Made by a program: the position numbers and the translations under genes. Positions 11,563 to 22,658 of a stretch of 25,244 bases of DNA are shown one piece after another (the first letter of the stretch is position 1; each line of letters opens with the position of its first letter). The notes under the pieces were generated by a model that was not told where the DNA came from, searched no databases, and worked only from the letters and a program-made list of their open reading frames with translations. Origin of the DNA: Patescibacteria group bacterium (GTDB lineage Bacteria > Patescibacteriota > Patescibacteriia > UBA9570 > XYC2-FULL-38-9); NCBI GenBank assembly GCA_035290285.1, contig DATDUS010000015.1:1-25244 (forward strand), written 5' to 3'.

Positions 11563-11895
11563 TCATTGCACAATACGTTGCATCGCGGATTCAACTAGAA
11601 TTTTCCATTTTTTGCGGCGCCAAACAGCAAAATTATATGTATGAGCACTCTTTAAATGAATACATAATCCATGGGTAAAAAATTTGAGGTTATTTTTCAA
11701 TGTTATAGATTCTATATCAGAGAGATGCAATGAAAGTGTGTATCGTTGAAAGTTTAACGGATGTGTTACAAAATAGAGCCGATCATTGGTGAGAAATAAT
11801 TTTCCTGTTATGCCGATATACTTTTGAAAATGATTTGCAAACCCTTCATAGAGCACTTGTTCATATGGTTGTAATTTGATTTGCATGGATTTCAT
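11563..11895 (-). CDS. GRAM/bacterial PH-like domain protein (110 aa)
   Basis: ANHFQ...GKLFLTNDRLYF...LSDIESI pattern typical of GRAM/bPH folds. Start 11895 lies just after a consensus promoter; the longer ORF-track start overlaps galU. Confidence 0.75.
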   Translation of the reverse strand: MKSMQIKLQPYEQVLYEGFANHFQKYIGITGKLFLTNDRLYFVTHPLNFQRYTLSLHLSDIESITLKNNLKFFTHGLCIHLKSAHTYNFAVWRRKKWKILVESAMQRIVQ

Positions 11896-11902
11896 AACAG
11901 GT

Positions 11903-11931
11903 ATCATACTGCTCTTTAATACTCTTTTCAA
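11903..11931 (-). promoter_or_regulatory. Promoter of the PH-domain gene (leaderless-type)
   Basis: TTGAAA, 17 bp spacer, TATGAT, 7 nt, ATG. Confidence 0.65.
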
Positions 11932-11949
11932 GCAATCAAGAAGGGTCTG

Positions 11950-11977
11950 TTGCATATTCAGTAATACATCGTATAAT
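11950..11977 (+). promoter_or_regulatory. Promoter of galU (leaderless-type)
   Basis: TTGCAT, 16 bp spacer, TATAAT, 6 nt, ATG. Confidence 0.65.
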
Positions 11978-11983
11978 AAATGT

Positions 11984-12871
11984 ATGAGCAAAAAACAACG
12001 TGTTCGAAAAGCTGTTATCCCTGTCGCTGGTTTTGGGACTCGATTTTTACCGGCAACAAAGGCCATTCCAAAGGAGTTATTACCTATTATTGATAAACCG
12101 GTAATTCAATATATTGTTGAGGAGGCTGTTGCTTCGGGTATCGAAGAAATTATTTTTGTTACCAGTGAACATAAAAACGCTATCGAAGATCATTTTGAGC
12201 GTAATTCCGGTCTGGAAACATTCTTAAAACAACGTCAGAAAGACACAGAACTTTCTACTATTCAATCACTTCATCAAATGGCACAGTTTGTGTATGTACA
12301 TCAAGATGAACCATTAGGATTAGGGCATGCAGTATTACAAGCAAAAGATGCCGTTGCCGGAGAGCCATTTATTGTTTTCGGTGGAGACGACATTATAGAA
12401 TCAACTATTCCTGCCGCAAAACAACTTATTGAAGTATATGAGAAATATGGTGGTTCAGTATTGGGTGTTGTTGAGGTACCAAAAGAAGCAGTGAATCGAT
12501 ATGGAGTTATTGATCCATTAAAACAGTTAGAAGAGGGAGTGACGCAAATTAAAGATATAGTTGAAAAACCAAAACCGCATGAAGCGCCTTCACAACTTGC
12601 TGCTGTGGCACGGTGGTTACTCACTCCAGAAATTTTTGAAGAGTTAGAACAAACGAAACCAGGAGCAGGTGGAGAAATTCAGCTTCCAGACGGTATTCGT
12701 ACGTTACTGAAGAAACAATCAGTATTTGCGAAAGTGTATAATGGTACCTATCGTGATTGCGGAAATAAAGTAGAATATTTAAAAGCGATTATTGCTTTTT
12801 CATTACAACACCCAGAAATGGGAGAACAACTGCGAGAATATAGTAAGAAGTATCTTGATCCTATTGTATGA
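11984..12871 (+). CDS. galU: UTP-glucose-1-phosphate uridylyltransferase
   Basis: KAVIPVAGFGTRFLPATKAIPKE, QDEPLGLGHAV, VEKP, GEIQLPD and DCGN motifs; start at ATG 11984. Confidence 0.93.
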   Translation: MSKKQRVRKAVIPVAGFGTRFLPATKAIPKELLPIIDKPVIQYIVEEAVASGIEEIIFVTSEHKNAIEDHFERNSGLETFLKQRQKDTELSTIQSLHQMAQFVYVHQDEPLGLGHAVLQAKDAVAGEPFIVFGGDDIIESTIPAAKQLIEVYEKYGGSVLGVVEVPKEAVNRYGVIDPLKQLEEGVTQIKDIVEKPKPHEAPSQLAAVARWLLTPEIFEELEQTKPGAGGEIQLPDGIRTLLKKQSVFAKVYNGTYRDCGNKVEYLKAIIAFSLQHPEMGEQLREYSKKYLDPIV

Positions 12872-14256
12872 AATCATATAAAGTATTTTTTACTCATATA
12901 CGAGCCATGCGATTCATGATTGGGTTTGCTGGTCTTGCCATAGTATTGTTGACTGTTGGGGCATCCTGTTTTCAAAAAAAATTACCTCCTCCAGAACCAA
13001 TCACACTCGTTGTATGGCGATCAGAAGACACCACCGGTGCTCTTAAAACTATTGCAGAGGAATATACTGCTGCATATCCGCATGTTTCTTTTTCATTTCG
13101 AACGTTCAAAAAAGAAGAATACGAAGATGCGTTATTTGATGCGTGGGCCAAAGGAGAAGGACCGGATATTTTTTCTGTCCCAAATTGGCGGCTTGGAAGA
13201 TTTACAGAGCTTATTTCTCCCATGCCTACTTCTGTACAACTGACTACTTCGTATGTAAAAAAATCGTTCATGAAAAAAGAACTGATTGTGAAAGCAAATA
13301 AGATTGTATTTCCATCACCAGTACGATTGCGTGATCAGTTTGTTGATGTTGTTACTTCTGATGTGGTATTCAATGACCAGATTTATGGGCTACCATTAAG
13401 CATGGACACTATTGCATTATTTTATAATCGCGATTTATTATCTAAAGCACAAATTGCTATTCCGCCAACAAATTGGGAAGAATTTAAAAATGCTGTACAA
13501 ACCATTGTTAAAAAAGACGATGAAGGAAAGGTGGTATTGCCTGCAACCGCTTTGGGTACTGCATCAAACATTCCTTATTTTAATGATGTTCTTTCTGCAA
13601 TAATGATCCAAAATGGAGCAGTGATGGCAGAGAGTGGGCATACAGGCTTTGCTGATGAAATTGAAAATCAACGAAAACCAGGCATTGAAGCTCTCGACTT
13701 TTATACTAAATTTAGTAATCCGACATGGAAAACATATAGCTGGAATGATGATCAATTGGATGCTCTAGAAGTATTTACTCAAGGAAATTTGGCATTTTAT
13801 TTTGGGTATCATCAAGACATTCCAGAAATTGAACGCCGAGCTCCGAATTTAAATTTTTCTTATACAAAGTTACCACAACTGAATGCAGATAATCCAATCA
13901 ATATTGCAAACTATTCTGTGGAGGCTGTATATGTAAAAAGCAAAAATAGTGACCACGCTTGGAATTTTATCAATTTTGCGACAGGAGGGGAACAAGTAAA
14001 AACGTTTATAGAAACCACAAAGCGTGTACCCGCACTGCTTTCATTAGTTGCTGAAAAACAAGAGGATCCACTCATGAGTGTGTTTGCAACACAAGCGTTA
14101 ACAGCGAAATCGTGGTATCATGGAATTGACCCCAATGCTATGGTTACGGCATTTACAGATATGGTTGATGCGGCAAATAAACGAGAGAGCACCTTGGAAG
14201 AAATTGTGGGCATTGCCGCTTCAAAGGTACAATTAACTCTACAAAAAAAGGATTAA
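12868..14256 (+). CDS. Extracellular solute-binding lipoprotein (carbohydrate SBP, family 1-like)
   Basis: Signal peptide ending VGASC (lipobox-like); GEGPDIF, QIYGLPLSMDTIALFYNRDLL, PPTNWEEF and AWNFINFA motifs; ATGA overlap with galU. Confidence 0.85.
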   Translation: MKSYKVFFTHIRAMRFMIGFAGLAIVLLTVGASCFQKKLPPPEPITLVVWRSEDTTGALKTIAEEYTAAYPHVSFSFRTFKKEEYEDALFDAWAKGEGPDIFSVPNWRLGRFTELISPMPTSVQLTTSYVKKSFMKKELIVKANKIVFPSPVRLRDQFVDVVTSDVVFNDQIYGLPLSMDTIALFYNRDLLSKAQIAIPPTNWEEFKNAVQTIVKKDDEGKVVLPATALGTASNIPYFNDVLSAIMIQNGAVMAESGHTGFADEIENQRKPGIEALDFYTKFSNPTWKTYSWNDDQLDALEVFTQGNLAFYFGYHQDIPEIERRAPNLNFSYTKLPQLNADNPINIANYSVEAVYVKSKNSDHAWNFINFATGGEQVKTFIETTKRVPALLSLVAEKQEDPLMSVFATQALTAKSWYHGIDPNAMVTAFTDMVDAANKRESTLEEIVGIAASKVQLTLQKKD

Positions 14257-14264
14257 AAATACAT

Positions 14265-14957
14265 ATGAAACGTTTTATCATCACCTGTGCGATAGCGCTG
14301 TTTGTATGGATGCCGGCAACGACAGCTCATGCAGCAACTCTTTTGCCTTCGTGTGCACGGGGAAATGGTGATTGCAGTACCTGTGAAATTTTACAATTGT
14401 TTCATAATGCGTCAAAGTTAGCAACCGAGTTGTTAAGTGCGGTCTTGTTGTTTACCTTTATTCTTGGAGGATTTTGGTGGCTTGTTTCTGGCGGAAACGG
14501 GGAGCGCGTGAAAAAGGGCACGCAAGTGATTACCGGTTCTCTTATTGGGCTGGTGTTTGTGTTTATGGGTTATATGATGGTGAACCTTGTTATTTCCGGA
14601 TTTATGGGAAGTACAGTTGGTTCTAGTGCTGAAAAAGGGAAAGATATGGTAGCAAAATTATTTACCGGTATTGGCAGTGGAGAGCGGTGGGATACCATTT
14701 GTGATGTAAAATTGCCAACGCCGACAATATCACCCACCAGTGATGAAACCACACCAGAATGTTTAGAGAGTAATCAATGTGAAGATAGTGAAGCGTGTGT
14801 TGAAAGTAAATGTATCTCTCGGTGTGAAGATATGGGCTATCAATGTGTTTCGAATCCCGTAGATTGTGATGGAACCATTCTACTTGAAGTTGACGAAGAT
14901 GGTGATGGCAACTATGATCCGTTATGTCCTGAGGGGCAAGATTGTTGTGGTGAATAA
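14265..14957 (+). CDS. TrbC/VirB2-like pilin paralog 1, with Cys-rich C-terminal domain
   Basis: AxA signal (TAHA), core GGFWWLVSGGNGERVKKGTQVITGSLIGL between two TM helices, and a 10-Cys tail with DEDGDG. Confidence 0.7.
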   Translation: MKRFIITCAIALFVWMPATTAHAATLLPSCARGNGDCSTCEILQLFHNASKLATELLSAVLLFTFILGGFWWLVSGGNGERVKKGTQVITGSLIGLVFVFMGYMMVNLVISGFMGSTVGSSAEKGKDMVAKLFTGIGSGERWDTICDVKLPTPTISPTSDETTPECLESNQCEDSEACVESKCISRCEDMGYQCVSNPVDCDGTILLEVDEDGDGNYDPLCPEGQDCCGE

Positions 14958-14968
14958 CAATAAATATT

Positions 14969-15454
14969 ATGCAACAAGGCATGTCTATTTTTAAAAAACA
15001 TTCCATGAGGAGACAATACAGCATACTGATATTATTACTCATAATTCTTTTTTTCCCGTCTATTGCGATACATGCACAAGCAACTCCTACACCTGTTGCA
15101 GCAACCGCTACACCTGCTGCAGCCACCCCTGATGCAGGAACAGGACCTGGATCTACTACAGTCATAACACCAGCAGCTTCACCCACAGTGACTGATTTAC
15201 CGAATCCGTTGGGCGAGACTAAAACACCGGCAGGTGTTATCCGAAATATTATTAAAGTATTCTTAAGTATTTTAGGCGCTATTGCATTTTTCTTTTTTGT
15301 ATACGGCGGCTTTTTATTTCTTATTTCGGCCGGGAATCAAGATCGTATAAAAAAAGGGAGAGAAACACTTGTTTGGGCAACAGTTGGGTTAATTTTTATC
15401 TTTAGTTCCTATGGCATTGCTGCTGCGGTGTTCAAAATTCTTTCCGGAGCATAA
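14969..15454 (+). CDS. TrbC/VirB2-like pilin paralog 2, with Thr/Pro/Ala-rich N-terminal linker
   Basis: AIHA|Q signal, ATPTPVAATATP... linker, core YGGFLFLISAGNQDRIKKGRETLVWATVGL. Confidence 0.72.
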   Translation: MQQGMSIFKKHSMRRQYSILILLLIILFFPSIAIHAQATPTPVAATATPAAATPDAGTGPGSTTVITPAASPTVTDLPNPLGETKTPAGVIRNIIKVFLSILGAIAFFFFVYGGFLFLISAGNQDRIKKGRETLVWATVGLIFIFSSYGIAAAVFKILSGA

Positions 15455-15505
15455 AACGATATAAAAAAACACCTTCATTTTCAAAAATGTTTTACTTTGT
15501 GTCGG

Positions 15506-15895
15506 TTATATAACGCTGTCCAAAAATTCGAGAATTCCAAGAGAGGATAAAATAATCAGTATCCCGATAACCGCCCAGAACAAAATATCTCGTCCTTTTT
15601 TTACTTTTTCTGAACTTGTCCCACCCATCATCATCGTAAATCCACCATAGATAATGAGGCTGAGTGCAATGATGCCCACAAATTCAAGAAATGTTTTAAT
15701 AATCAAATATCCAGTAGATTCCAGGCTTGATTCTGGAAGACCCGCTCCTTTTAAAATGCCGCTACCATCAAATGGTACGGCAAATGCACTCGGGGCTGTA
15801 GCAATAATACTCGTAGCGATTATAATGGCAAAAAGAAAAAACCAGGTAGAAAGTGTATGTTTTTTTTGTGGAGGCACTTGTTTAGATTGATTCAT
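15506..15895 (-). CDS. TrbC/VirB2-like pilin paralog 3
   Basis: SAFA|V signal, core YGGFTMMMGGTSSEKVKKGRDILFWAVIGI. Confidence 0.72.
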   Translation of the reverse strand: MNQSKQVPPQKKHTLSTWFFLFAIIIATSIIATAPSAFAVPFDGSGILKGAGLPESSLESTGYLIIKTFLEFVGIIALSLIIYGGFTMMMGGTSSEKVKKGRDILFWAVIGILIILSSLGILEFLDSVI

Positions 15896-15896
15896 A

Positions 15897-16283
15897 TTAT
15901 TGAAAACCAGTTGCTGTTTCTAATATACTAAAGATATACAGGGCAATGCCATAGGAAGCAAGAATGATCAGTAGACCAATGACTGCATTTTTCAACATTT
16001 CTTGAGCTTTTTTTACTTGTTCTTGATTTCCTGCTGCTGTCATCCATTTGAATCCGGCATAGAGTATAAGTGATACAGCTATAATACCCAACACACCTAA
16101 AAATGCGCCGATTATCACCATTGCTATAGCTGTTGGACTGCTGGTTCCGAGACCGGTTGCGCTTCCTGCTTTGCTACCATCAATTAAATCAACGGCAAGC
16201 GTTTGTAAAGGCAGAAAAAAAGATATTCCAAAAAGTATTGGGACTATTTTTTTATTTTTTTTGCGATTTTGATGATAGCACAT
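15897..16283 (-). CDS. TrbC/VirB2-like pilin paralog 4
   Basis: QTLA|V signal, core YAGFKWMTAAGNQEQVKKAQEMLKNAVIGL. Confidence 0.75.
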   Translation of the reverse strand: MCYHQNRKKNKKIVPILFGISFFLPLQTLAVDLIDGSKAGSATGLGTSSPTAIAMVIIGAFLGVLGIIAVSLILYAGFKWMTAAGNQEQVKKAQEMLKNAVIGLLIILASYGIALYIFSILETATGFQ

Positions 16284-16304
16284 AGAATTATTTTATCCAA
16301 GTTA

Positions 16305-16766
16305 TTAATCGCTGAGAGGTAACGTATCAGGTGCTTCTGAATTTATGTGTCCTGGCTGAAGCATGGTAGCCATTTGAGCTGTGTCTATAATATAGAGAGT
16401 AATACCCCAAGAAGCTATAATAATCAGTACGCCAATTATTGCTGCCTTTAAAATACCGATTGCTTTTTTTACTTGTTCTTGATTTCCTGCTGCTGTCATC
16501 CATAAAAATCCGCCGTATATAATAAGTGAAACTGCAATAACAGAAAGTATCCCTAAGGTGATACTGATGATATTAATCACCACTTCTGTGGGTGTGTTAT
16601 TGCCTAGTCCAGTTTTTTCAATTGATTTGCTTACTCCCCCTTTTTCTAAAATTTTTGAAGTCTGAGCCGAAAGTGTCAACGGTGCAATACAGAGCGTTAT
16701 AATACAGAGAGAACTCAATGCTCTGCGCAAAAGTGAAAGAGAAAATTTTTTTTTGAGAAAAGCCAT
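16305..16766 (-). CDS. TrbC/VirB2-like pilin paralog 5
   Basis: TLSA|Q signal, core YGGFLWMTAAGNQEQVKKAIGILKAAIIGV. Confidence 0.75.
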   Translation of the reverse strand: MAFLKKKFSLSLLRRALSSLCIITLCIAPLTLSAQTSKILEKGGVSKSIEKTGLGNNTPTEVVINIISITLGILSVIAVSLIIYGGFLWMTAAGNQEQVKKAIGILKAAIIGVLIIIASWGITLYIIDTAQMATMLQPGHINSEAPDTLPLSD

Positions 16767-16796
16767 AATAATGAGTGAGGCTGTTATAATAGAGTT

Positions 16797-16825
16797 ATTA
16801 TACTATATATGCTTTAGTTTATCAA
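16797..16825 (-). promoter_or_regulatory. Promoter for the three minus-strand pilins
   Basis: TTGATA, 17 bp spacer, TATAAT. Confidence 0.7.
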
Positions 16826-16839
16826 TACGCATGTTATTG

Positions 16840-16868
16840 TTGACCTTATTTTTATTATTTGCTATAGT
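16840..16868 (+). promoter_or_regulatory. Strong promoter for pilin paralog 6
   Basis: TTGACC, 17 bp spacer, TATAGT with extended -10 TG. Confidence 0.72.
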
Positions 16869-16915
16869 ACAGCTACAAATATGAGACATATTTTTCTCAT
16901 TTTATACAATATGAA

Positions 16916-16924
16916 AGGAGGTGA
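16916..16924 (+). promoter_or_regulatory. Full-consensus Shine-Dalgarno
   Basis: AGGAGGTGA upstream of ATG 16931. Confidence 0.8.
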
Positions 16925-16930
16925 GATGCA

Positions 16931-17311
16931 ATGAAGATCATGAATAAAATCAATGTCGTCGCTGCAACAACTTTAGGTTGGGTTGTCGCGTCAACCCCTG
17001 CAGCATTTGCACAAATCAACACAGCTTATCCTGATTTGAATAAATCTTTAGGAAGCAATGATCCGGTAGAAATTGTCACTTCAGTGATCAACATTGTTTT
17101 AAGCGTCCTTGCTATTATTGCCGTGATATTTATTCTCGTTGGTGGATTCCAATGGTTAACAGCAGCGGGTAATGATGAAAAGGTAAAAAAAGCGCAAAAA
17201 ACAATTGTTGCAGCAGTGATTGGTTTGCTTATTATTATGGCTTCCTGGGGCACAGCAACATGGGTATTAGCAAATTGGGGAAGTGCAACGGGAACTGAAA
17301 CAACGGTATAA
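16931..17311 (+). CDS. TrbC/VirB2-like pilin paralog 6, candidate major subunit
   Basis: AAFA|Q signal, core VGGFQWLTAAGNDEKVKKAQKTIVAAVIGL; has its own promoter, SD and terminator. Confidence 0.78.
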   Translation: MKIMNKINVVAATTLGWVVASTPAAFAQINTAYPDLNKSLGSNDPVEIVTSVINIVLSVLAIIAVIFILVGGFQWLTAAGNDEKVKKAQKTIVAAVIGLLIIMASWGTATWVLANWGSATGTETTV

Positions 17312-17333
17312 CAGTTTTTCCTGTACGATATTT

Positions 17334-17357
17334 AACCCCGCGTATTGCGGGGTTTTT
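17334..17357 (+). terminator. Intrinsic terminator after pilin 6
   Basis: aaccccgc-gtatt-gcggggtt followed by ttt. Confidence 0.8.
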
Positions 17358-17384
17358 GTTATGCTGAGATTTTTTCTATATACT
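17356..17384 (+). promoter_or_regulatory. Promoter of the DUF2079 gene
   Basis: TTGTTA, 17 bp spacer, TATACT, 9 nt, ATG. Confidence 0.55.
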
Positions 17385-17393
17385 ATTTACCAT

Positions 17394-19403
17394 ATGCAGA
17401 ATAAAGAAAAACGAACTATCTTGCACATTTCATTCACCGTGTGGGTGTGTGTATTTGTGTATACGTTAGTGATGATCGTCATGAGCAGTGTGCAATATAG
17501 GTATGATATGTACAATGCATTTGATTTAGGAATTTTTGATCAGGTGTTGTGGAACAGTGTGCACGGCCGTTTGTTTGAATATTCTTTCAATGATTATTCA
17601 TATCTGGTGGATCATCGTGAGTGGATATTGTTACTGCTTGCACCTTTGTATGCGGTCGTACAGCACCCTATAACATTATTGATTATTCAGTCTGTTGTAT
17701 TAGGTTCTGGTGCAATACCGTTCTATCTGCTGAGTCAAAAAGTATTCATTACCCACACAAAACATTCACGAGAAATTATTGGTATTATTGCAGCCATAGT
17801 ATATGTATTCAACCCTTCTGTTCAAGCCATGAATTTTTTTGAATTTCACGTTTTACCCTTTGCTATTCCACTCGCGCTTTGGTTATGGTGGTATATTGAA
17901 CAGAATTCATTTTGGGGAGCGCTGTGTAGTTTTGTACTCCTATTGTTGGTGCGTGAAGAATGTGCGCTCATGATAGTGGGTTTGGGAATTTTAATGCTTA
18001 TAGAGCGTAAAACTCTTATATGGAAATCAATTCGCATTACCGGCGCACATTTTATTGTGATCAGCGTGCTTTGGTTTTTATTGATGTCGGTTATTGGGGC
18101 GCAATTTGCTCCAGAGGGTGAGGTAAAATTTTTTTATTTTTATACGTGGCTGGGGGATACGCCGTGGCAAGCAATACAATTTATGTTGCTTCACCCACTT
18201 CAAACAATAGGAATAATGTTTGGCAAAGACCATCTTTCTTTACTATTTCTATTCTTTGCATGTGTTTTTTTCTTTCCACTTTTTCGTTTGCGTTATATTC
18301 TTCCAGCTATATTGCCGCTTATTTTATATTTGTTAATTGATAAGTTATTGGTCATTTCTATATTAAAGGCGCATTATTCTGCAACTATTATTCCTTGGTT
18401 TTTTATTGCAGCTCTGTATGGATACGCTGCTTTTGAACAAAAAATACAATCTATTCAAAAAAAAGAATGGGCAAAACAGTACGATCTTCGGCTGTATTTT
18501 ATTGTTACGTGTATTGTATGGTATGGAAGTATGTTTGTGATATTCGGTCCATGGTGGAATATGATACACTCTTTTTCGCTTGCTGCGCAACGCGATCGTA
18601 TAGTTATTCATCGTATTATTCGTGAAGTTCAACCAAATGATGGCATAATGACAACTGATGGATTGTATCCCAGGCTTTCTCGCCGTCGTGCCTTATATCC
18701 AGCAATGCATTTATTTAAAGGAAAAAAACATTTTTCCGAACAGCTATATACATTGCCCACGCAATCAATAGATTGGATATTCCTTGAATATTCAGAATTA
18801 CTACGCTATGGGACAATATTTTCAATTGAAGAACGGCAAGATGCATGGAAACGGTTGCAACAGATTGTTCAACAAAATCAACTTGCTGTGATTGAATCAA
18901 CAGAGGATCTTGTGGTGTTTGGAAAACCAACCCCCAAACGGCCATCCTTGCTGCCCATTGTAACTTCAGATCGTACTCCGTTGCAACACGAAGTGCACGA
19001 GTTAATCAATAATGATATTTGGTTTGAAGGTTGGAATTATGCATCGGTCAATGCAACACAGGGAGAGTTAACTTTGGCATTTACCAAAGAAAAAGAATCA
19101 AAAGAATTAGATGATGCATACATCAGGCTACAGTGGAATGATACACAACAGAAAGTGATAAAAGAAAAAATATTTGCACTTGGGTTCGGTATTTATCCAT
19201 CACACGCATGGCAATATAGTGCATCAAAATATATCATGGTAACTGTTCCAGTTGTGTCCCCTCAAGAAGGAGTAGCTCTTTCCATCAGCATTGGTCCTGT
19301 AAAACAGGAAGTACATTCCGGATTTTGGTTTGTTACTGCAGAGTCAAATATTGATACAGAGCGTGCTGTCACCTTGCTTCTTTCTGGCATGACACCTTAT
19401 TAG
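17394..19403 (+). CDS. DUF2079-family polytopic membrane protein (predicted GT-C glycosyltransferase) with a soluble C-terminal domain
   Basis: FDLGIFDQVLWN, DH..ILLLLAPLY, FEFHVLPF, LLVREE and HYSATIIP motifs; many TM helices. Start moved to 17394, past the pilin terminator. Confidence 0.8.
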   Translation: MQNKEKRTILHISFTVWVCVFVYTLVMIVMSSVQYRYDMYNAFDLGIFDQVLWNSVHGRLFEYSFNDYSYLVDHREWILLLLAPLYAVVQHPITLLIIQSVVLGSGAIPFYLLSQKVFITHTKHSREIIGIIAAIVYVFNPSVQAMNFFEFHVLPFAIPLALWLWWYIEQNSFWGALCSFVLLLLVREECALMIVGLGILMLIERKTLIWKSIRITGAHFIVISVLWFLLMSVIGAQFAPEGEVKFFYFYTWLGDTPWQAIQFMLLHPLQTIGIMFGKDHLSLLFLFFACVFFFPLFRLRYILPAILPLILYLLIDKLLVISILKAHYSATIIPWFFIAALYGYAAFEQKIQSIQKKEWAKQYDLRLYFIVTCIVWYGSMFVIFGPWWNMIHSFSLAAQRDRIVIHRIIREVQPNDGIMTTDGLYPRLSRRRALYPAMHLFKGKKHFSEQLYTLPTQSIDWIFLEYSELLRYGTIFSIEERQDAWKRLQQIVQQNQLAVIESTEDLVVFGKPTPKRPSLLPIVTSDRTPLQHEVHELINNDIWFEGWNYASVNATQGELTLAFTKEKESKELDDAYIRLQWNDTQQKVIKEKIFALGFGIYPSHAWQYSASKYIMVTVPVVSPQEGVALSISIGPVKQEVHSGFWFVTAESNIDTERAVTLLLSGMTPY

Positions 19404-19406
19404 ACT

Positions 19407-20903
19407 TTATTCATTTCTTTCGCATACTTGTTCTTGTTCTACTTGTAGAATGGATATCACACGATCGTTTGGCATCATAGGTACTGTAGCTACCTCTTCT
19501 TCATGCAGAAATACCACATTCGGATTTCCATGTGTCAAAAATAAGAGTGATTGTGCAGCAAGAGAAAAACCATCAAGCTGCAACCCAGGAACATCAACAA
19601 TAATATAGGCAGTGGTTCCTTGCGGAAGAGTACGTAATTGTTCTGCAATACGAGTATGATAAGCAATGTATTGACATGCCGTTCCTTTCGTATTCGCCCA
19701 AAAAATAAAATATCGATAGTATTCTATCCCACCTATTACAATAAGAAATAATAGGCTCCCTGTAATGAATATTGCTTTCCATTTTTTTTTGAGCTTTTTT
19801 TGTATATACATATACGAATACCATGCACCTATACCAATAAATATATAGACCACCGGCATGGCTCCAATAGAACGGAGAGCACTTGGGATGTGTTCATTAG
19901 TAATCATGCTTGGTAACAACATAATACATAGCCATGTATATAAAAAGAATCGAATAAAACGTTTTTGAGGCAACTGATGCTTGTTGAACGCAATGATAGC
20001 GAGGCCAACAAGGAACAATATTCCTACAGGCAACAAGAGTAATGGAGCATGCGCAATATTATGTATCCATAACGGATCACCTTGTATATTAAACATCCCG
20101 AATGTTTTTATGATATTGATTAAAAATGATTGTACGGGATGATCAGAAAAAATAATCGAAATTGACATTGCACGATTAATACTATCCAAGGGATGATATA
20201 AAAAATACAATGCTAAAGGAAACACCATAATTCCTGCCGCAACAAATAAAGCAAACCATCGTTGGAGCGTTTTTGCTCTCTCTTTTTTAGGGGATAAAAA
20301 TATTTCTACACTACTATATAGAATCATCAGCACAATAACCATGCGAAATGCAAGGTAAGTATATAGACCCAGTCCTAATAAAATGCCACATGCTACATAT
20401 AAACCAATAGATTTTTTTTCTTTTGCATACAGATATAATATTCCCAGCCATACAATAAAAAGTGGCGTCAAGGTTGCGCGAAATCCAATACGGCTCATCA
20501 CTATTGGCCAAAATGAAACTGCTATAAAAAAGGTAGACAGAAGTGCTATAGGTATTACGTGTGTAAGTTTTCGAGCTAAAACAAATACCCCCAATACAGT
20601 GAGAATACCAGCACAAGCACTCACAATACGTAATTGCCAAATACCAGAATCAAATAACTGAAATACTGCACTGACAATGATGATGAACAACCCTTCTCTT
20701 CCTGTATTATCTGGGTAAAATGCGGCGTATTGACCTGTTTCAGCTGTCTCTAATGCATCGTTTGCGTATGCAGCTTCATCCAAACCAAATCCAGGCGGAA
20801 TAGATTGTAATTGCCATGTTCTCAAAAAAATAGCAACAATAATAATACTACCAAGTAATATAATCGTAGAATATTTTTTGCCAAATTGAAAAATAGATAC
20901 CAT
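19407..20903 (-). CDS. GT-C glycosyltransferase (ArnT/PMT-like, family 39/83 type)
   Basis: PPGFGLDEAAYA (DE motif after TM1), WQLRIVSA, SRIGFR and YTYLAFR motifs; about 11 TM helices plus an outer tail. Confidence 0.82.
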   Translation of the reverse strand: MVSIFQFGKKYSTIILLGSIIIVAIFLRTWQLQSIPPGFGLDEAAYANDALETAETGQYAAFYPDNTGREGLFIIIVSAVFQLFDSGIWQLRIVSACAGILTVLGVFVLARKLTHVIPIALLSTFFIAVSFWPIVMSRIGFRATLTPLFIVWLGILYLYAKEKKSIGLYVACGILLGLGLYTYLAFRMVIVLMILYSSVEIFLSPKKERAKTLQRWFALFVAAGIMVFPLALYFLYHPLDSINRAMSISIIFSDHPVQSFLINIIKTFGMFNIQGDPLWIHNIAHAPLLLLPVGILFLVGLAIIAFNKHQLPQKRFIRFFLYTWLCIMLLPSMITNEHIPSALRSIGAMPVVYIFIGIGAWYSYMYIQKKLKKKWKAIFITGSLLFLIVIGGIEYYRYFIFWANTKGTACQYIAYHTRIAEQLRTLPQGTTAYIIVDVPGLQLDGFSLAAQSLLFLTHGNPNVVFLHEEEVATVPMMPNDRVISILQVEQEQVCERNE

Positions 20904-20910
20904 GGCACAT

Positions 20911-20919
20911 ATTATATCA
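20911..20919 (-). promoter_or_regulatory. Extended -10 promoter (leaderless-type)
   Basis: TGA-TATAAT, 7 nt before ATG 20903. Confidence 0.55.
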
Positions 20920-20969
20920 ATATTAAATGATATGCAGAAGCAATACGAAAAAAAATCAACGATTTTTTA

Positions 20970-22571
20970 TTATTTATTAATGACGGTTCGTGGCACTCGA
21001 AAAATGGTTGCTTCGGAATCTTCGTAAGCAATTATAAAGCGTCCATCGTTTATTAAATTTTGGTACATGGATGTATGGTCGCGATCTACAAATACAAACC
21101 GAGCATGAAAATCATTTTGAATCATCTCAAACAATTGTTCTGTTTGTTCTCCTGTTGTAATGTGTACCCACTTCCAATATAATTCTTTGTCGTATGTATA
21201 CATAAATGTTGGGTCTAAACCAACAATATATCGATTTCGCGCTGAGCGGTAAAACAGAATCGGAAATTCATCCCAATCATTATGCAAGACAATGTCACCT
21301 TTGGTGCTGTGTTCTCGAAGCCACATGCCTGCTGCAGAGAAACGTTCAAATGGAATCCCGCCCTGCAGCGCCTGCGATAATCGTTTTGCATCTTTGATCA
21401 TGATAGTAGGAACCAAAAAACCAATGCAAGCTATACTAAAAACAATAGTGACGTGATAAAGGGGGTGTTGTACAGACCGAGAAATAGCCATGATTTTTTT
21501 TGGTAATGCATACAGTATGCCGCTTCCGTGTAAGCTAAGAGCAGAGAAAAGAAACCCCCACGGAACGTAATATTCTATATATCGTTGAGACTTGACTGTA
21601 AAAAGAAAAAAAATAATCGTCATCATACACGCAACTTGAGTATATATTGGTTGTTTTTTGATGGTCAGAATAAAGAGTGGAATGCTGATGAGAAGAAGTG
21701 TTGTGAGTAAAATGGAGGAAGTGACAAGATCACTGAGTGCTGTTGGGTACCATTCGCCGCCCACACCAATTGTTTCTTGATAATTTACCAGCCCTATTTG
21801 TATAATTTGTTGCCAATAAAAAAGAAAATGTTGAGGAAATGAGGGGTGAATAAGAAGACCAAACAATGTGCCAACAAAAGCAGCAAGAAATGGAGCAAGA
21901 CAAGTAACAACTTGTTGTTTAGTCACTGTTATTTTTTTTTGTTTTGTGATTATTTCGAGAAAAGCAAAGAGTGAATACATACCCATCATTATTGGTAATA
22001 GAATAAATCCGCCATATGCCCATACAAAAAAGAAGCTCAACAGAAGCAGGAGTCGATACTGTGTATGAATAGCAAAAAAGAATCCACCCACCAGGAATAA
22101 AAAACCAACACTCGGAGCTTTAGAAAGTCCCATACGAAATGAAAAACCGTATGTACATAACAGTAAAAGGCTGAATAGGAATGCATAGCGCACGTGCACG
22201 GAACGCAGAAGAATATAAAAAAGTGTTACTGTGCTTGCTGCAAGAATAATCGTTGCCATTTTCATGCCAAAAAACGAACCAAAGAGCACAATGAATGGAA
22301 TAAGAAATATGTGATAGAGGAGATGATGGTCAACGTAGGCGTGAGAAAGTGTTGTGTAGGTCAGCCAGGGAAAGTTTGTAATCGGGCCACGTCGTTTTCC
22401 CATCAATTCTGCCAATTTTAAATGATAAAAAGAATCTGGATCAACAAATGTTGGTGCGGCAGTCCAAAAAGTAAATGCGCAAGCTGCAATAATAAAAATA
22501 CAAACTACTCCAATCCATTCATTGTGTAACCAGAATTTTTTTAATCGGAGTGCAGTTGAAAAGTGATACAT
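20970..22571 (-). CDS. GT-C membrane protein with STT3/AglB-like architecture
   Basis: DPDSFYH after TM1, many TM helices, and a soluble C-terminal domain with VLHNDWDEFP where STT3 has WWDxG. Start is 22571 or 22643. Confidence 0.65.
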   Translation of the reverse strand: MYHFSTALRLKKFWLHNEWIGVVCIFIIAACAFTFWTAAPTFVDPDSFYHLKLAELMGKRRGPITNFPWLTYTTLSHAYVDHHLLYHIFLIPFIVLFGSFFGMKMATIILAASTVTLFYILLRSVHVRYAFLFSLLLLCTYGFSFRMGLSKAPSVGFLFLVGGFFFAIHTQYRLLLLLSFFFVWAYGGFILLPIMMGMYSLFAFLEIITKQKKITVTKQQVVTCLAPFLAAFVGTLFGLLIHPSFPQHFLFYWQQIIQIGLVNYQETIGVGGEWYPTALSDLVTSSILLTTLLLISIPLFILTIKKQPIYTQVACMMTIIFFLFTVKSQRYIEYYVPWGFLFSALSLHGSGILYALPKKIMAISRSVQHPLYHVTIVFSIACIGFLVPTIMIKDAKRLSQALQGGIPFERFSAAGMWLREHSTKGDIVLHNDWDEFPILFYRSARNRYIVGLDPTFMYTYDKELYWKWVHITTGEQTEQLFEMIQNDFHARFVFVDRDHTSMYQNLINDGRFIIAYEDSEATIFRVPRTVINK

Positions 22572-22631: not shown

Positions 22632-22658
22632 CAACTCCATCAATGGAACGCTACGCAG

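Follow-up and report, generated by a model that had tools for sequence, protein, structure and literature searches.

A VirB2-like pilin array and its conserved envelope gene neighbourhood in the Patescibacteria class ABY1

Analysing the whole 25,244-base contig DATDUS010000015.1 (C15, hereafter the window) from a genome of the Patescibacteria class ABY1, we identified between positions 11984 and 22571 a block that holds galU, a MalE-type binding protein gene, six paralogs of the PF18895 (T4SS_pilin) family and three membrane proteins of the glycosyltransferase GT-C type. We read this region, with a probability of roughly 0.55, as the ABY1 form of the VirB2-like array of Patescibacteria, set in a conserved envelope block that runs from galU through the binding protein and the pilins to a DUF2079 protein and an STT3-like GT-C protein. 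The pilin array itself is already known; the context of galU, binding protein, array and GT-C genes was not found described in the literature that we searched.

An earlier note, made from the letters of the window, had placed galU, the binding protein, the six paralogs and the three GT-C proteins in this stretch, and all of them were confirmed there. The features of the block are as follows.

11984..12871, +, galU, UTP-glucose-1-phosphate uridylyltransferase (TIGR01099, NTP_transferase), first gene of the plus-strand operon
12868..14256, +, MalE-type extracellular solute-binding protein (SBP_bac_8 94.5 bits, SBP_bac_1 74.9 bits)
14265..14957, +, pilin 1, 'first'-type, hairpin with C-terminal Cys-rich domain, beside the binding protein (PF18895 21 bits, under the cut-off)
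14969..15454, +, pilin 2, 'second'-type, Pro/Thr/Ala-rich mature N-terminus and NPLG motif (PF18895 40.2 bits)
15506..15895, -, pilin 3, variable middle group (PF18895 23.9 bits, under the cut-off; unambiguous matches to paralogs and orthologs)
15897..16283, -, pilin 4, variable middle group (PF18895 34.9 bits)
16305..16766, -, pilin 5, variable middle group, first of the 5-4-3 unit (PF18895 31.3 bits)
16931..17311, +, pilin 6, short 'last'-type, most conserved, candidate major subunit (PF18895 39 bits)
17334..17362, +, terminator-like hairpin behind pilin 6 (stem of nine pairs, 6 of them GC, then a T run)
17394..19403, +, DUF2079 polytopic membrane protein (PF09852 192.8 bits)
19407..20903, -, PMT_2/ArnT-like GT-C glycosyltransferase (PMT_2 32.2 bits, cut-off 26.1)
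20970..22571, -, STT3/AglB/PglB-like GT-C membrane protein, hereafter GTC3 (by fold comparison; the open frame reaches a TTG at 22643)

Conservation of the block among relatives and across class ABY1

Linkage was assessed with three separate anchors, namely the pilin matches in relatives, the STT3-like protein, and the binding protein alone. The family to which the genome belongs keeps one order in 11/11 genomes (galU, binding protein, pilin-1, pilin-2, middle and pilin-6 types, DUF2079, STT3-like gene), with DUF2079 directly adjoining the array in every one of them and with yebC, ruvC and a PKD/7TM protein following the STT3-like gene. Other families of the order present the same gene order without DUF2079 and carry two STT3-like copies.

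Beyond the order, searching a species-representative genome collection with the STT3-like anchor yielded more than 570 loci, whose record titles include Kerfeld-, Buchanan-, Falkow-, Kuenen-, Uhr- and Nomurabacteria. Among the 67 loci kept, all with at least 5 kb downstream, pilins lay within 9 kb in 40, at least three pilins in 34, and the binding protein in 31. The binding-protein anchor, applied to 20 loci from 20 genomes and 20 families of the class, found 3 to 16 pilin genes directly downstream in 20/20 loci, galU upstream in 17, and DUF2079 and/or the STT3-like gene beyond the pilins, likewise in 17. Furthermore, the adjacency of array and GT-C genes is kept in loci where galU, binding protein and pilins are inverted relative to the STT3-like gene (L090, L106, L123). 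The linkage that the earlier note had proposed for its glycosyltransferase genes therefore holds class-wide for DUF2079 and the STT3-like gene, together with galU and the binding protein, and fails for PMT_2, of which no ortholog was found in the loci of 20 relatives and which was recovered in 2 of 80 related loci.

The content of the block varies around these fixed members. In relatives, a PGI/PMI-type isomerase and a HAD hydrolase stand between the STT3-like gene and yebC (L005, 16267-18067; L008, 6080-7150); this place is empty in the present genome, where the PMT_2 gene is inserted beside DUF2079, and an isomerase-like open reading frame (ORF) occurs near a solitary pilin gene on another contig (C149; L113, 1829-4456). 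In the relative G002, an extra membrane protein of 546 amino acids (aa) without Pfam match lies between the pilin 6 ortholog and DUF2079 (L005, 10764-12404, minus strand). Accessory membrane proteins of different kinds seem to be tolerated in the block. Many public records of metagenome-assembled genomes that hold the locus (L028, L029, L044 and others) are titled 'uncultured Gammaproteobacteria bacterium', which looks like a bulk mislabel.

Six VirB2-like pilin paralogs

The curated cut-off of PF18895 (26.6 bits) is exceeded by pilins 2, 4, 5 and 6, with pilins 1 and 3 below it; a local pilin hidden Markov model (HMM) matches all six paralogs and all six fall into ortholog groups, pilins 1 and 2 each into one of its own. 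The VirB2-like assignment proposed in the earlier note is upheld in that the paralogs belong to the VirB2-like T4SS_pilin family. Each paralog combines a signal peptide, a short mature N-terminus and two hydrophobic helices joined by a GN-E-VKK-type loop, and a core made of a transmembrane (TM) helix, the motif GGF.W...GN.E.VKK and a second TM helix is visible in the paralog alignments. Read by eye, the signal peptides end in a small-x-A site (AHA, IHA, AFA, TLA, LSA and AFA), and a type IV prepilin G/FTLxE site was seen in none of the six sequences.

A tree of the pilin cores from 16 genomes resolved three clades, 'first', 'second' and a short-branched 'last' clade of the pilin 6 type, with the middle pilins as lineage-specific expansions. 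The array is made of three conserved positional types and a variable, recombining middle group. In orthologs of the 'first' type, the hairpin is extended at the C-terminus by a domain of roughly 105-150 aa in which 13 Cys is the usual number (11 in pilin 1 of the window). Members of the 'second' type have an NP(L/F/I)G motif in common. Within the middle group, a 42-base stretch is identical between pilins 4 and 5 (window 16006-16047 and 16462-16503); it belongs to a 151-base repeat with 75% identity overall and is a sign of recent gene conversion between these neighbouring paralogs. On the minus strand, pilins 5-4-3 make up one unit, separated by 21 and 1 nucleotides (nt) and preceded by a promoter-like site (16825-16797, 11/12 matches).

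Pilin 6 stands apart from the rest of the array. It is solitary, with a promoter-like site in front and a terminator directly behind, and it alone among the genes of the block has a strong GGAGG ribosome-binding site. Across the order, its orthologs show 39-50% identity, and their branches in the tree are short. The division anticipated by the earlier note, one major subunit and several others, corresponds to what was observed, namely a short member that is strongly conserved, accompanied by several that vary or carry extensions.

The relationship of these proteins to characterised pilins was sought at several levels. Pilin 6 scored 38 bits against NF045849 (the Mbov_0395 pilin-like family of mycoplasma integrative and conjugative elements, ICEs), just below the cut-off of 40, and the TrbC HMM (PF04956) gave weak matches to pilins 2 and 3 (E 0.22-0.86). 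A profile of 20 pilin-6 orthologs returned three matches at E<=10 from the PDB, two of which are Agrobacterium VirB2 (8cue, E 0.93, with an alignment in register across the mature protein; 8exh, E 3.7). This resemblance is a hint and no proof. For pilin 6, AlphaFold2 (AF2) predicts a helical hairpin (helices 45-76 and 82-120, core pLDDT 86-94), for which Foldseek found nothing below E 1 in the PDB, a bare helical hairpin not being diagnostic. More widely, PF18895 genes were found in 41/41 related genomes at 2-14 copies each, often in arrays, and most of these genomes have one such gene within an open frame of 2200-2900 aa.

galU and a binding protein without a transporter

The first gene of the block is assigned to galU by the TIGR01099 equivalog model (342.6 bits, over the cut-off of 326.8). 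Its stop overlaps the start of the binding protein gene by 4 nt, and gaps of 8 nt (binding protein to pilin 1) and 11 nt (pilin 1 to pilin 2) follow, so that galU, the binding protein and pilins 1 and 2 are packed as a single operon.

The nearest solved relatives of the binding protein are maltodextrin and sugar binding proteins. Its description in the earlier note as a sugar-binding lipoprotein is plausible, although the lipobox, GASC, is non-canonical. Of 81 genomes sampled evenly across class ABY1, 79 carry the gene exactly once. No permease of the BPD_transp_1 family was found in the window or in the 84% complete genome to which it belongs (G000), nor in the relatives G009 (95% complete) and G004 (98% complete); the relatives G006 and G005 have one each, at unrelated sites. 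An import role for the binding protein is unlikely, because no permease was found either in this genome or in two relatives that are 95-98% complete. A complex model of the binding protein with pilin 1 scored 0.00, which is neither support nor counter-evidence and was not used.

GT-C-type membrane proteins

The DUF2079 protein, which we take to be a member of the Pfam GT-C clan, was present as the earlier note had it, with a different start: gene packing, with the terminator right behind pilin 6, makes the ATG at 17394 the most likely one. Compared with the STT3-like family by hhalign, it reached a probability of 20% (E 0.001 over 302 columns). The literature search for DUF2079 returned no paper.

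GTC3, of about 533 aa, has no match to Pfam (STT3 included) or NCBIfam, and a profile of 22 of its orthologs had no match at E<=10 among PDB sequences. By contrast with these sequence-level searches, its AF2 model, built from the 22-sequence alignment (pLDDT 91, pTM 0.90), retrieved the oligosaccharyltransferase catalytic subunits STT3, AglB and PglB as best Foldseek matches (E 4e-10 to 7e-8), with ArnT and AftA ranked lower. VIA-align gave Z scores of 30.3 for STT3A, 25.9 for AglB and 24.7 for PglB over 458-492 aligned residues (model residues 3-533), against 22 for PMT, restricted to the membrane part, and 20 for ArnT. The alignments to STT3, AglB and PglB take in the C-terminal soluble domain, and the model agrees with the fold of GT66, a GT-C fold with 13 TM helices and a C-terminal soluble domain.

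Across the 22 sequences, the invariant residues include D44-P45-D46, D81, H83, E273 in GGEWY, R330 and W433-D434. The D44-P45-D46 triplet lies just past TM helix 18-36 of the model and by this position corresponds to the catalytic D-x-D expected in the first external loop of GT66 enzymes. E273 falls within a long external loop, and W433-D434 belongs to an (H/S)-D-W-D-x-F-P segment about 30 residues past the last TM helix. Judged on the predicted fold, GTC3 is STT3-like and is not an established oligosaccharyltransferase.

The second STT3-like copy in the other families of the order was considered as a counterpart of the PMT_2 gene, and this was rejected: both DUF2079 and PMT_2 reached hhalign probabilities of 20-25% against the STT3-like family, and BLASTP between PMT_2 and the STT3-like protein gave no match.

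Type IV secretion genes elsewhere in the genome

Profile scans of the window proteins detected no VirB4, VirB11 or VirD4 gene in the 25-kb window, in agreement with the earlier note, whose broader proposal of an array without a type IV secretion system (T4SS) fails at the scale of the genome. One contig (C59) ends in a partial VirB4-like ORF (P-loop_TraG 91.7 bits, plus AAA_10 and DUF87), and coupling-protein-like ATPases with T4SS-DNA_transf, TrwB_AAD_bind and TraG-D_C matches are encoded on two others (C5, 369-2639, L110; C186, 6899-7882). Both of these ATPases lie away from the pilin array and from VirB4. PF03135 (CagE_TrbE_VirB) and PF04610 (TrbL) had no match in the genome. The possibility raised in the earlier note, that a T4SS encoded elsewhere accounts for the pilins, is thereby realised in part.

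VirB4 orthologs 83-87% identical to this one were recovered in five relatives. Their locus encodes, in order, a membrane protein of 1074 aa, a protein of 663 aa, PrgI, a protein of 243 aa and VirB4, followed by four genes that include a DsbA-like one, then by a pilin fusion, radA and recG, an arrangement that agrees with published ABY1 T4SS loci beside recG and radA. The pilin fusion of the present genome (C162, L108, 1234-2208, minus strand) is a 324-aa protein that joins T4SS_pilin to Peptidase_M15_4, a D-Ala-D-Ala carboxypeptidase-type domain, beside a DsbA-like gene and radA; since it sits in the VirB4/PrgI locus of relatives, it may be a wall-opening (VirB1-like) component. Proximity of pilin and motor genes is not required in the published survey of Patescibacteria, where a pilin lies near virB4 in 1135 of 1948 assemblies (PMC12102498).

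The T4SS_pilin hairpin is found on larger proteins as well. A partial copy (C52, L109, 4497-6634) combines it with Ig-like domains (Big_5 and TIG), and proteins of 2200-2900 aa headed by the hairpin are also encoded in relatives (e.g. G013:C3:25523 and G022:C3:103480). These proteins look like giant adhesins on a pilin-type anchor.

Genome and neighbouring genes

The organism is an ultra-small groundwater bacterium, and its genome comprises 1.05 Mb in 188 contigs at 84% completeness. The left half of the window is devoted to housekeeping functions, with gyrB, a CarS-like gene, secE, nusG, the L11 and L1 genes, nucleotide metabolism and gatB. Divergently upstream of galU, a small GRAM-domain protein (window 11563-12066, minus strand) is conserved at this place across the family; since its long ORF runs into the start of galU, translation probably begins further inside.

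Proposed mechanism and alternative explanations

In the mechanism that we infer, the pilins would gather in the membrane after signal-peptidase cleavage, from where the MPF-FATA-like T4SS (VirB4, PrgI and partners) would extract and polymerise, or dock, them. Pilin 6 would make up the bulk of the structure, with the extended pilins as possible tip or accessory adhesive subunits. GalU would supply UDP-glucose for a lipid-linked glycan, which the DUF2079 protein and the STT3-like enzyme could transfer, on the outer side of the membrane, to the pilins or to the surrounding surface. Given the missing permease, the binding protein may be an extracytoplasmic, glycan-binding partner of the pilins and not an import receptor. 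Filament assembly, pilin glycosylation and host attachment are all putative. A narrower version, in which the block from galU to the STT3-like gene is a dedicated ABY1 'glyco-pilus', its pilins glycosylated by the STT3-like and DUF2079 proteins and its MalE-type protein acting as a pilus-associated lectin or glycan chaperone that recognises or holds the host, strikes us as quite doubtful.

A series of observations weighs against the pilin-array interpretation and its glycosylation component. The linkage of yebC and ruvC to the STT3-like gene is no looser than that of the pilins, so that gene order in the lineage is conserved partly by descent, and 27 of the 67 STT3-like loci lack nearby pilins; in the light of both, gene order alone is no proof of a function shared between the GT-C genes and the array. 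The WWDYG motif is absent from the 22 sequences of the GTC3 family, with W-D as its sole invariant remnant. N-x-S/T sequons are marginally enriched in the pilin ectodomains of relatives (z 1.98 in N-terminal and 1.13 in C-terminal parts, counted over non-independent sequences) and are not enriched in those of the window, which hold 2 sites in all, so that the case for N-glycosylation is too weak as it stands. The array and VirB4 are on separate contigs in 5/5 relatives checked. The T4SS_pilin hairpin also heads the peptidase fusion and the Ig-domain giants, which fits a plain membrane anchor equally well. Finally, no filament of the T4SS_pilin type has been reported for any Patescibacterium in the literature searched, and the public runs that hold the sequence are three DNA metagenomes (soil and groundwater), with no RNA run listed.

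Part of these observations would be expected if galU, DUF2079, PMT_2 and the STT3-like gene served the making of envelope glycans in general (a polymer attached to the wall, a lipoglycan or the glycosylation of an S-layer), the pilins remaining unmodified and the adjacency being inherited. The retention of yebC and ruvC, the pilin-less loci and the weak sequon enrichment all point this way, as do the organisation of the GT-C genes in separate transcription units (past the terminator or on the opposite strand), the lack of conservation of PMT_2, and the sugar-metabolism genes (PGI/PMI and HAD) of relatives' blocks. Mere inheritance accounts less readily for an adjacency that outlives inversions, for the translational coupling of galU to the binding protein and pilin genes, or for the recurrence of DUF2079 and/or the STT3-like gene beyond the pilins in 17 of the 20 binding-protein-anchored loci, and we hold this explanation to be possible, if somewhat on the improbable side. 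Another explanation concerns the hairpins themselves, which could be two-helix membrane anchors that display ectodomains (Cys-rich knobs, Pro/Thr linkers, Ig giants, a wall peptidase), forming a variable surface coat without any T4SS or filament. The domain does head the Peptidase_M15_4 fusion and the Big_5/TIG protein of this genome and the 2200-2900-aa proteins of relatives; the separation from VirB4 and the absence of a specific pilin match by Foldseek for the hairpin model are also consistent with it. Yet the short members (113-140 aa), which have almost no ectodomain to display, are the most conserved, the family includes T4SS and ICE pilin-like proteins with a hint of VirB2 similarity, and in Southlakia the T4SS cluster includes the pilin genes, both being essential (PMC10633639); we consider the anchor coat unlikely.

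The binding protein could also be a sensor, or a device to capture host-derived sugars, and in this way feed or trigger the T4SS, in loose analogy to ChvE in the vir system of Agrobacterium, with the pilins as a conduit for uptake or contact. Its MalE-like nature without permease, its near-universal, single-copy occurrence in the class, its invariable position directly upstream of the pilins, and the import by T4SS speculated upon in reviews (PMC11665869) would suit such a role. Window scans detected no sensor kinase or regulator in the block, and the 0.00 score of the binding protein and pilin 1 complex model is used neither way; we regard the sensor as a very improbable explanation. Of the interpretations weighed here, the ABY1 pilin array within a conserved envelope block is the one that we favour.

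Implications for Patescibacteria

The T4SS and pilins are essential in the sole genetically tractable Patescibacterium (PMC11665869, PMC10633639), and their role in these bacteria is described as completely unknown in the same papers. A class-wide, fixed partnership between a transporter-less sugar binder, a UDP-glucose enzyme and an oligosaccharyltransferase-like enzyme offers testable handles on this role, and raises the questions of which sugar the binding protein recognises, whether the pilins are glycosylated, and whether the STT3-like enzyme acts on them. Since the ABY1 pilin genes lie apart from the secretion motor, a survey centred on virB4 would miss the context of the array. The glyco-pilus, if true, would be the first protein-glycosylation system known to be associated with pilins of a T4SS, and would show the binding-protein fold in a new role.

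Comparison with known systems

Pam pili of Saccharimonadia and Microgenomatia are built of Ig-fold subunits by donor-strand exchange (Troman et al. 2026 preprint, PMC13278184). They are surface filaments specific to the Candidate Phyla Radiation (CPR) and serve host contact; an identity of the two was rejected, the Ig-fold pilus being unrelated to helical hairpins. With the VirB2/TrbC pilins of Agrobacterium (PF04956; 8cue, 8exh), the paralogs of the window share a signal peptide, a short mature N-terminus and two hydrophobic helices with a short charged loop between them, whereas here there is a single membrane, no VirB5, VirB7, VirB9 or VirB10 context, and many paralogs, some with large extensions. 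With the GT66 enzymes STT3, AglB and PglB, GTC3 shares the fold over 450-490 residues, a D-x-D after TM1, a loop Glu and an Arg; it differs from them in lacking a sequence-level match, in being shorter (~530 aa), and in having (H/S)DWD in place of WWDYG.

The glycosylation of pilins in Gram-negative bacteria (PilO/PglL, and the GT-C enzyme TfpW of Pseudomonas group IV pilins) offers a parallel, with a membrane glycosyltransferase gene beside the pilin genes and a lipid-linked donor used outside the membrane. The substrates there are type IV pilins and not hairpins of the VirB2 type, the enzymes PilO and PglL belong to the Wzy_C type and are not STT3-like, and we know of no binding-protein partner in any of these systems.

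The closest counterparts are the arrays of other Patescibacteria, and the earlier note was correct in stating that such arrays are known from CPR genomes (PMC12102498, PMC10633639, PMC12857230). A total of 441 arrays of 2-11 VirB2-like genes were described in 383 Patescibacteria assemblies (Quinonero-Coronel et al. 2025, PMC12102498). In Ca. Southlakia epibionticum ML1, the pilins are essential and located within the T4SS cluster (Wang et al. 2023, PMC10633639), and a 2025 review counts six pilins in its array (PMC12857230). Relaxases are mostly absent according to the literature, in line with the 'non-conjugative' character that the earlier note had supposed. The array of the window has in common with these systems the PF18895 domain, tandem divergent paralogs (six here, six in Southlakia), Sec-type signal peptides, and an MPF-FATA-like VirB4 and PrgI-type locus in the genome. 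Unlike that of Southlakia, it is neither in nor beside the virB4 cluster, and across ABY1 as well the array lies outside the T4SS cluster, with galU and an orphan sugar-type binding protein ahead of it and DUF2079 and the STT3-like GT-C gene behind.

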